DNA of 63,987 nt, the filler included, from Cirrosporium novae-zelandiae (Eukaryota): NCBI GenBank assembly GCA_026023565.1. It is 4 parts of 4 records of this genome, joined end to end, with 100 filler letters (N's around TTAATTAATTAA, not from the genome) between each part and the next. Parts side by side here need not be neighbours in the genome. Positions count along the whole stretch, not along the records: positions 24,500 to 48,856 come from JAPETS010000088.1; 3 more parts are not named here. One strand, 5' to 3'. The translations under genes and the position numbers were made by a program. The notes under the pieces are model-generated. The model did not search any database, was not told the DNA's origin, and saw only the letters and a program-made list of their open reading frames with translations. This document shows, one piece after another, positions 24,685-27,600 of the stretch (the first letter of the stretch is position 1; every line of letters starts with the position of its first letter).

Positions 24685-27600
24685 CTAACCCTTCTTTTTT
24701 AATTCCAACACAGCCTCCTTAACAGCCTCACTTTCTCTTTCAGCTCAATCTAATTGTTCCCTTATTCCCTTTAAACCCTCAGGATACTTCTCTCGACGCT
24801 CTTTATCAATACTCTTGTATTCATCTTCAAGAGAGTCAAGTTCAGAAGGGTCAATTGGATTCTCAGGATGGGCAATAATGTTTTCTATTTTCTTTAAGGT
24901 TGCATCTAGTTTAACATTTAACTCTCCTAAGTCTTTCATTTTCTCAGAACCTTCATTTGCAATATTCTCAGCATTAGTTTGTCTCTCTGACAAAACAATT
25001 GCTCGTTTAATACACTCATCATCTGTAGAACTACTACTTGTAAGACTACCTTTTGGTAAATTGCCACCAGATCCAGATCCAGAACTACCTTCTGGTAATC
25101 TGCCACCAGATCCAGATCCAGAACTACCCATCATAAAACTAACAGTATTGTATCATTCTTCTAAGAAGGTAGTAAAACCTTTAGATATAAATGATCCAAG
25201 GGTTCCTATTAATATATAAATAGATAAAGTAGACAAATCTAAACCAAGATAAAAAATCAAGACATTCTTTATAAATCAAGCTAAGAAGATACCAGGTAAA
25301 ACAGTGTAAAAATAAGTCTTAGAGAATTTTGTAAAAAAGGTTTTAACTCCTATTCTACTCTGTAAAGGTAAACTAACAAAAGCGTGAGGTTTAGGAGGGC
25401 TATTTAAACATCACTCTAAAGAAGAATATGCTCTATTTGATGTACTTCTTAAGAGATCATAAAAGTGTTCTGGAATTAATCAAGGGTTTCTTTTTGTAGC
25501 ACGACCTTGTACTAATTGTGCATAGATTATGTATATAAATAATCACGTAGCTACTACAGAAACAATAGATCCAAAACTACTTACAACGTTTCAACCGGCA
25601 AATGCATCAGGGTAGTCACTTATACGACGAGGCATTCCTTGTAGACCTAAGAAATGTTGAGGAAAAAAAGTAAGATTAACCCCTAAGAATAAAATTCAGA
25701 AATGAACTTTACCTAAGAATTTATTATAGTCTAATCCTAATATTTTAGGTATTCAGAAGTATCATGCACTAAATAATGCAAAGACTGCTCCCATACTTAA
25801 AACATAATGGAAATGAGCTACGACGTAGTAAGTCGCGATAGTAGCACATAGTTTTCATACAACTCAGGTCACCCTGAGGATCGGACTATAACTTATCTAG
25901 TCGTTTAACTTAATAAACTTTCGATTGCCACGTTTAGTCTCTACAGATCCTACTCACTAATATAGGGCTACGAAGTTAGAGCAAATATTAACTTTGGTTT
26001 CCACGGTATTATCTCACATTTTTTTTTTTCTTTTCAGCTTTATGAAAACACATGAGACTTCACCGTTAGCAATATTAATATTACCGAAAAAAAGTATGAT
26101 GTTTTTTTTTTCATGGTGGCAAGACAACATGACACTTACTTATTGAAGTTTTTTCTTGAATTTTTTTAATGATTCCGCTTTTTCACCCAACAATGGATAG
26201 TCAATACAGTGCGTTATAATTTGTTTCAAGGTTTCTTTTTTATAGATCTCTATACTATAGAATATTCCATAAGGATTTCTAACTATATTAGTTGCATCTA
26301 AATATTGTTTGATAGCATCAATTAAATAAAAATCATCATTTTGTCCAATAGAAAAAGAGTGATTACCCTTTTTTCTAATTGAAAAACACCCTTCAGCTTC
26401 TATAAAACCTGAAAGTCATTGTTTAAAATAGTCAGGTAAAATAAAATTCTCTGCTTTTAAACCAAACATATCAGAGTTAATAATCACGGATTGTTTTTCA
26501 AACTTAGAATTTCTATTTAATAAATAAAGATCTACTGAATTGTGGATTAAACATGTTTTTAAATATTCAAGCTGGCATATTTTTCTCGAAGTTAAAAGAG
26601 GGTAAACTTCAAAAATCTTTAGAATGTTTTCCACTTCTTTTTTGTTGTTTACCACTCATATTACAGCCTCTTCGGTTTTACCAGTAATCCTTACTGTTCC
26701 TCCTATTACTTTAGAAATTTCTACTAACATGTTATAATTAGATTTAATATTGGACAGCTTAATAACAAGTCTGTACTGTAATGACTGTTTACGTCAGTGA
26801 TTTACTTGAATACTACCATCTCCGTCCATTAAACCTACTCAAAACATTTTTATATAATCCTCACTTAGACTAACCTTGTTTTTTTCATTACTTATTATAC
26901 TAGAATAACCTTTTTCTTTCTTGCATTGCTGTGGTGTTTTTATTCTCGCTGTTTTTTTTTGTTCGTGCTCCGCATCGGAGGAATAAAAAAAAAAGAGCGA
27001 TAAAAAACAACCACATAGCAAGGAGTACGCCACCCGTAAGTAAAATAACTTACTGGAGTCGTTGGTTAACGTAATTAATAATGGGATAAATGTAACCAGC
27101 GAAGTAAAAAAAACAATCAAACCCGTATCATGGAAAGCAATATCAAGTGAAGCATTAGCTAAAAGAACTCCACTTACGAATAAAGGTTCTTAGTCTTTTA
27201 ATCTTTCATAACTAAATATATACCCACTGTAGACACCATCTAGAGCAGCATGTTTTTTTATAGTACTATGGTTTATATTTAATGCTCTTTCAGCATCTTT
27301 TACACCTTCATACTTACCTAAAAAATTCTTATTTGTATCATATACAAACACTGCTTTTCTAATATGGCTTTTGTTATTAATCTCTAAGACTAGTTTGCTA
27401 CAAGAACACCAATCAGATATTAAAGGTGTATCGGTTAAATTAAAAGGTATATTACTTAGATACCATTCACCCCTAAATAATGTTTCTTCCTTAATAACAT
27501 TAACTAGTGTAATGTGATTTGATTTAATTAACTTAGCTAAAGTATTAACTGATGGGAAAATAACTAACAAATCTTTATAGGAATTATATATATAAACAGG

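Follow-up and report, generated by a model that had tools for sequence, protein, structure and literature searches.

Cox1 is the most conserved mitochondrially encoded protein, and its C-terminus is usually taken as fixed. Lineage-specific in-frame additions of about 100 residues or more to core oxidase subunits are reportedly documented at the protein level for COXI of the sorghum 9E cytoplasm, which carries a C-terminal extension, and for the male-type COX2 of bivalves. An addition of the same kind is considered here, at the 3' end of cox1 in a stretch of 63,987 nucleotides from Cirrosporium novae-zelandiae (NCBI GenBank assembly GCA_026023565.1), called the window in its whole length and composed of four joined contigs. 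The conserved end of Cox1 is followed there, with no stop codon between, by a tail of 223 codons, which has no sequence relation to the sorghum and bivalve extensions and, unlike them, is known from DNA alone. Judged by its sequence, the source is an ascomycete cox1 3' end whose nearest named relatives are lichen-forming Lecanoromycetes.

The same genomic state was published for Ramalina in 2026, and the window tail is a further and better-characterised example of it. According to the available part of PMC13706191 (J Fungi, September 2026), the Ramalina genes cox1, nad3, nad4 and nad5 are recurrently without stops; in five species the stop-free intervals of cox1 measure from 134 up to more than 300 codons, and they were reproduced by reassembly. 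The mechanism of the stop absence is given there as unknown, with a call for data on transcripts or proteins. As in that text, the window shows neither TAA nor TAG where the conserved Cox1 end lies, then a long stop-free interval, and likewise a mitogenome of the lecanoromycete type and an intron-rich cox1. Of the features by which an "extended stop-free" end is defined there, two were found, namely the absence of TAA/TAG at the conserved end and the absence of any stop within 50 codons (223 in the window). The organism, however, is a different one, its last cox1 exon being just 81% identical to R. intermedia Cox1, and whereas the interval is treated in the available text as a terminal state and not as a protein, the window tail is built of definable parts, and its junction recurs in three homologues.

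A stop-less cox1 that continues in frame into more coding sequence is also represented by the fused cox1/2 open reading frame (ORF) reported for Pleosporales, Acanthamoeba and Dictyostelium in the accessible part of PMC5626475, where two products from the single Acanthamoeba cox1/2 ORF are cited; the window tail differs in being neither Cox2 nor any known family. The COX1-COX4 (ctaF) fusions have been described in bacteria, and in PMC4013037 the extended C-terminus of Zymoseptoria tritici Cox1 was proposed to be such a fusion too. These share with the window tail the additional hydrophobic helices, which lie beyond the conserved domain at the C-terminal end of subunit I; the linker and helical domain of 150 residues found here are lacking in ctaF. 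In the available part of PMC12886410, the cox1 stop of Xanthoparmelia is TAG, and extensions go unmentioned. Within the literature searched, no description of such Cox1 tails as proteins was found.

The frame in question lies on the minus strand of the window at 24685..25896 and encodes 403 residues (P0001) under translation table 4, which is the right code because seven TGA codons, from W45 to W162 of P0001, align with conserved Trp residues of a homologue, P0009. The conserved part of the last cox1 exon occupies 25357..25836 (5' limit approximate; Pfam COX1, E=4.7e-31, P0001 residues 21-112). This intact exon has 84-86% identity to the best Cox1 matches; COX1 exon pieces were detected in five upstream ORFs as well, and the integrity of the conserved region was judged on the last exon. 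The last conserved codon, closing the LPLQS end, finishes at 25357, and the next one is AGA (Arg), with which the tail opens as RIGVKTFF. As the initial annotation had claimed, no TAA or TAG is met past the conserved end until the TAG at 24685-24687, the frame being open for 223 codons (24688..25356).

This openness is not due to chance: when the 669 nucleotides (nt) were shuffled singly 20,000 times, no shuffle came out free of TAA/TAG, and each of the other five frames of the tail DNA holds 5-19 such stops. The guanine-plus-cytosine (GC) content by codon position is 0.41/0.39/0.22 in the tail versus 0.42/0.40/0.19 in the exon, and the Trp codons of the tail are TGA in all three cases and TGG in none. 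A codon log-odds score trained on nad2, nad3 and the exon amounts to +0.10 in frame versus -0.50 and -0.67 in the other sense frames, and in each of the three sub-regions (membrane, linker and helical) the tail frame scores best. The tail is thus supported as a genuine coding sequence in the mitochondrial code, joined in frame to the conserved Cox1 end, and the earlier statement that the in-frame fusion is coding holds on the strength of the shuffles, the TGA-encoded Trp, the GC content at third codon positions (GC3) and the codon score. The DNA had also been called AT-rich, which proved to be an overstatement, with a GC content in 200-nt windows of 0.33-0.39 over the helical part and linker and of 0.29-0.31 over the membrane part; the tail had further been said to be free of palindromes, and of the 35 short-range inverted repeats in the mitochondrial contig, the 25 longest all lie outside 24685-25356.

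All the features quoted in the initial annotation, that is the hydrophobic stretches, the Gly/Ser linker, the charged helical part and the AVLELKKKG ending before the stop, were found in the translation. The tail begins with a basic segment (tail residues 1-16, net +4) followed by a strong hydrophobic helix (residues ~17-39), together at 25240..25356 on the minus strand, as are all the parts of the tail. The 19-residue Kyte-Doolittle means of this first helix are 1.9-2.05, and those of the matching helix in three homologous tails 2.1-2.5. After a shared LGLDL motif comes a second, weaker hydrophobic or amphipathic helix (residues ~43-64; 25165..25230), with a best mean of 1.3 (1.6-1.7 in the relatives); accordingly, of the two hydrophobic stretches originally proposed, the first is sound and the second only borderline as a membrane span. 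The residues D40, L41 and L44 are invariant in the three-sequence alignment A1. The Gly/Ser-rich linker (residues 75-108; 25033..25134) contains an in-frame tandem duplication of 2 x 39 nt (25045-25122; 92% identity, spacing 39), and it leads to an acidic all-helical domain (residues 109-223; 24688..25032) with 20 K+R and 29 D+E. The AlphaFold2 model built from the three-sequence alignment has a mean predicted local distance difference test (pLDDT) of 70, with the membrane part low; helices are predicted at residues 109-162, 170-190 and 194-222 with pLDDT of ~90 (block values mostly 87-94), and values below 50 are assigned to linker residues 77-108, in agreement with the layout suggested at first, from a membrane part via a Gly/Ser linker to a helical acidic domain.

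The 3' flank is short, the stop codon being separated by 42 nt from the start of tRNA-Arg (anticodon CCU; 24570..24642, minus strand; ARAGORN, Rfam tRNA 55.6 bits), a distance that counts for translation of the tail with Cox1. Between the two there is a GC-rich hairpin, GGUGGGUGGUACACCCAC (24645..24662, minus strand), the stem of which is present in both the minimum-free-energy and the centroid structures in the RNA fold of 24560-24700 (z = -3.0).

Three metagenomic Cox1 proteins, P0009, P0004 and P0101, cluster together with the window tail by BLASTP to form a tail family. The BLASTP alignment of P0001 with P0009 runs unbroken from Cox1 via LQS into the tail, with 60% identity over 286 residues, and the homology between P0009 and P0004 is likewise continuous; within the tails, the identity to the window tail is 35, 30 and 27% for the family of P0009, P0004 and P0101. 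A profile of the four tails matches only its four members among 82 tails and in a database-wide search re-finds only P0101. What is common to them is a module of the basic stretch and two hydrophobic helices, which begins within 5 residues of LQS in all four tails and starts with Met in none, so that a conserved ATG start of its own is absent. The junction common to three homologous tails in other organisms favours co-translation with Cox1. The scan of the Joint Genome Institute (JGI) metagenomes with P0001 yielded a sole locus, L001, with a last cox1 exon 75% identical and a tail of 184 codons (736-1287) that is unrelated to the window tail and has three TGA, no TGG and a GC3 of 0.26. Besides a hydrophobic helix and a Gly-rich stretch, the L001 tail has predicted helices. 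The AlphaFold2 model of this tail from the single sequence has a mean pLDDT of 42, too poor to back a common architecture.

Searches with the tail itself gave little. HMMER against 1.84 billion representatives returned only the window's own fragment P0002, a 128-residue translation by table 11 covering tail residues 76-203 and filed in NCBI nr on a 24,357-bp contig, which bears out the remark that a standard-code ORF shows the tail only as a fragment. The Pfam scan gave sub-threshold noise only at E up to 1, Foldseek against PDB no match at E up to 0.001 apart from generic coiled coils, and phmmer against PDB sequences no significant match (best E 0.062); the word-index search among longer proteins gave 0 matches in 7,998 candidates, and the JGI metagenome scan with the tail alignment 206 pattern matches, 0 confirmed. 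An analogy to the chimeric ORFs of plant cytoplasmic male sterility had been drawn, and no positive sign of it was found within the 64-kb window (~24 kb of it mitochondrial DNA), where tblastn and blastn of the tail detected no other copy or chimeric piece, just tRNA-like 38-nt matches.

Several known identities of the tail were tried and rejected. No COX2 or COX2_TM match at E up to 1 was found by Pfam for a cox2 fusion, an atp6 fusion was dropped on the same scan, and no Cyt_c_ox_IV or COX4 family appeared at E up to 1 for a COX1-COX4 (ctaF) fusion, this resting on Pfam with the identity count of PMC4013037 not reproduced. A terminal group I intron ORF is not seen either, the tail having no LAGLIDADG or GIY-YIG domain in Pfam. 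The permissive Rfam scan detected no intron core in 24685-25356, though it found the neighbouring core of the last cox1 intron at 25862..26101 (minus strand, upstream of the last exon; RF00028, 21.9 bits, E=0.0068, under the gathering score). As for a downstream exon, stop and tRNA are only 42 nt apart, and the Cox1 homologues need no residues past LQS.

The habit of carrying a tail was surveyed among the relatives of the Cox1 part. This search matched 7,999 proteins, of which the best 120 listed were surveyed, 119 with a recognisable Cox1 end; it admitted only proteins of 221-706 residues, whereby tail-less exon fragments were excluded and very long tails on full-length proteins cut off. The named relatives among the best listed matches are Cladonia, Phlyctis and Ramalina, all Lecanoromycetes, with a top identity of 84-86%. 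At least 24 residues past LQS were counted in 80 of the 119 listed proteins and at least 79 in 67, and the 81 tails (the window's included) were sorted by BLASTP (E up to 1e-4) into 39 unrelated clusters. For the 48 near-full-length listed matches, the number of residues past LQS is 0-4 in 14, 5-23 in 11, 24-78 in 8 and 115-138 in 15; six of them end exactly at LQS, which marks the reference end. Fungal Cox1 had been stated to end normally near LPLQS, and this is true of some but no rule among the nearest relatives, where 14 of these 48 stop within 4 codons. At ~0.06 stops per codon, less than 1% would be expected past 79 codons by our own arithmetic, versus 15 of 48 seen. Long Cox1 tails are therefore far commoner than chance among the relatives, and a stop-free cox1 end with a tail looks like a common habit among them.

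Other compositions were observed in the same matches. Seven listed proteins (P0006, P0007, P0010, P0020, P0026, P0086 and P0115) are in-frame Cox2 fusions (Pfam PF00116, PF02790), and P0011 is an in-frame Atp6 fusion (precomputed Pfam PF00119). A Cys-rich tail family of 72-133 residues has eight members (P0028, P0095, P0096, P0098, P0102, P0117, P0119 and P0122), the spaced Cys/His patterns of which look like a zinc-binding module; the tails of P0013 and P0036 have a similar terminal Cys cluster, and several listed tails are acidic coiled coils.

The junction was also followed in public sequencing runs. The run X1 contains 0.76 of the sampled words, and the runs X2-X13 only 0.05. The Logan contigs of X1 cover 30 of 30 bins of 24500-26200 without an indel or joint, the pieces of the tail having depths of 18,588-20,050 and those of the exon 19,726-22,197; no loose end at 25356/25357 was seen among those listed for X1, 67 further loose ends lying outside these. 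The runs X14 and X15 come from two other organisms in the same study; they match the tRNA and exon but not the tail, and the contigs of X14 part from the window exactly at 25357.

We put at about 0.6 the probability that the tail is translated together with Cox1, a reading suggested by the sequence comparisons. The mitoribosome would read on for 223 codons and produce a Cox1 with a cis-encoded add-on, in which a basic stretch is followed by two membrane helices, the first firm and the second borderline, and then by a flexible linker of Gly/Ser and an acidic three-helix domain. The end of the transcript would probably be set by processing at tRNA-Arg, 42 nt past the TAG, with this tRNA as the 3'-end processing signal of cox1. 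With two spans the helical domain would be placed in the matrix, and with the first span only in the intermembrane space. The tail may then be kept on Cox1 as a lineage-specific accessory module or clipped as in the Acanthamoeba cox1/2 product, and the odds of the two appear roughly even. Co-translation is hard to replace because the junction is in frame and stop-free, the homology extends from the junction on, four diverged organisms are involved and the tail has no ATG of its own.

Several points weigh against co-translation. Among the sequencing runs listed as containing 24560-25900, none is an RNA run. The available part of PMC13706191, citing 3'-end mapping, states that RNA processing can remove encoded stops in budding yeasts, because of which genomic ends need not equal protein ends. 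The codon at tail position 2 is ATA, which table 4 permits as a start. The homology with the other three tails is confined to the membrane module, while the helical domain belongs to the window tail only and is without a relative. The tail survey, restricted to proteins of 221-706 residues, is biased. The run X1 is probably the source sample of the window assembly, so its depth is a matter of consistency and not an independent check. Finally, a 176-codon antisense frame (24689..25219, plus strand) is open too and scores just slightly below the sense frame (-0.02 versus +0.04), with which it has third codon positions in common. Its product is featureless and Ser/Leu/Pro-rich and stops short of the conserved membrane part, and on score, composition and reach it was rejected as a true gene and taken as a mirror by-product of the sense frame.

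Among the other explanations, the one that survives best, though we regard it as improbable, is that Cox1 ends at LQS, either by an mRNA cut near 25357 that leaves a non-stop message or by an unrecognised termination signal, the rest being a separate non-AUG orphan gene or untranslated. The ATA codon would suit such a gene, the contigs of the relatives in X14 and X15 match the exon and not the tail, with X14 diverging exactly at the last conserved codon, and PMC13706191 stresses, in the part available, that genomic data leave the ends of transcript or protein undefined. Without co-translation, however, a sequence would have no reason to stay in frame and stop-free at the junction, and the shared module lies within 5 residues of LQS in four diverged tails that have no conserved start codon. 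At the junction itself, the permissive Rfam scan was empty of any structure or processing motif, and no palindrome lies there among the 25 longest of the 35 repeats.

It is more doubtful still that the tail arose as a side effect when the 3' end was rearranged, for example by a homing endonuclease or replication slippage, with the stop lost and the resulting extension tolerated or degraded and functionless. Such remodelling is indicated at nad3 on the same contig (a 136-nt copy and a decayed NUMOD1 frame, described below), the 39-nt duplication in the linker is recent, and the turnover of tails is quick, with 39 unrelated clusters among 81. Yet stop-gain should shorten an unselected read-through, whereas 223 codons are open here and the membrane module is kept in four organisms; no endonuclease domain is found in the tail and no second copy within the window, and the helical domain is predicted confidently by AlphaFold2 from three sequences without detectable homology over that domain. 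That the fusion is not the working cox1 but a chimera made in assembly, a heteroplasmic variant of minor share or mitochondrial DNA copied into the nucleus, as might be suspected from a gene end only 185 nt from the contig end (24500) in a window that strings four contigs via spacers, is highly improbable given the equal and very high word depth of tail and exon (~19,000-22,000) with no joint or indel in X1, the Trp codons of the tail being all TGA, and the same junction in three other organisms.

The four contigs of the window meet at spacers (44 N, TTAATTAATTAA, 44 N) at 24400-24499, 48857-48956 and 60291-60390. Only the contig 24500-48856 (JAPETS010000088.1) is mitochondrial, with a GC content of 0.33; the remaining three have 0.40-0.44 and carry fungal nuclear-type genes for an aldo/keto reductase, a major facilitator superfamily (MFS) transporter, a Zn2Cys6 factor, an amino-acid permease and an O-methyltransferase. 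The mitochondrial contig holds on the minus strand, from low to high positions, tRNA-Arg(CCU), cox1, two tRNA-Asn, nad3, nad2 and three more tRNAs. The cox1 gene spans ~18 kb and includes intron ORFs of the LAGLIDADG and GIY-YIG types as well as a group II intron that carries a reverse transcriptase; of the 11 ORFs tested in the intron region from 26140 to 42907, 10 contain a domain for LAGLIDADG, GIY-YIG or reverse transcriptase, the LAGLIDADG ORF at 26140-27189 among them. The group II intron lies near the cox1 5' end (minus strand, 40256-40344; Rfam 64.9 bits), and the 848-codon frame within it (40361-42907, minus strand) has reverse transcriptase, maturase and HNH domains and is in frame with the first cox1 exon. 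GC-rich palindromes of a common type (e.g. CCCAGCCCCCACTC / GAGTGGGGGCTGGG) are dispersed over the mitochondrial introns and spacers, at 32731-32777, 35670-35704, 37799-37859, 38822-38864, 43217-43254, 44689-44719 and 44866-44911, some of them inside intron ORFs.

Beyond cox1, tRNA-Asn(GUU) is present in two tandem copies at 43663-43733 and 43827-43897 (minus strand), 164 nt from start to start and with flanks alike. The nad3 frame of the window (45369-45845, minus strand) continues ~30 codons beyond its FELGKNALKI, around which point fungal Nad3 usually ends, to its stop. The nad3 3' end (45496-45631) has a 136-nt copy, 82% identical, at 44065-44200 (minus strand), downstream of nad3; beside it there is a decayed 197-codon frame (44346-44939, minus strand) with a weak NUMOD1 match (E=0.024). 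By sequence, the copy and the decayed frame look like what a free-standing homing endonuclease would leave behind after remodelling the end of nad3.

As for the wider meaning, many unrelated tails on Cox1 are a more interesting lead than a single case. Tentatively, and at odds clearly below even, the Cox1 tails may constitute a class of mitochondrially encoded proteins that evolves fast and has stayed hidden, expressed by fusion and kept open by selection. In filamentous ascomycetes, lichen-forming ones among them, dozens of unrelated orphan modules appear on cox1, including membrane-plus-coiled-coil, Cys-rich zinc-finger-like and acidic helical ones, and these could be cis-encoded accessory subunits or regulators of complex IV or, alternatively, selfish ORFans riding on the one unsilenceable mitochondrial gene. 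Provided that the tails are translated, the termination question raised by Ramalina becomes directly testable, through the peptides and the size shift that follow from a defined protein architecture. Were the tails untranslated, the long in-frame open stretches would still need explaining. If tails of 100-300 residues are translated, the complex IV of these fungi would carry or shed lineage-specific modules that are absent from annotation, and the protein diversity of mitochondrial genomes would exceed the standard gene set.

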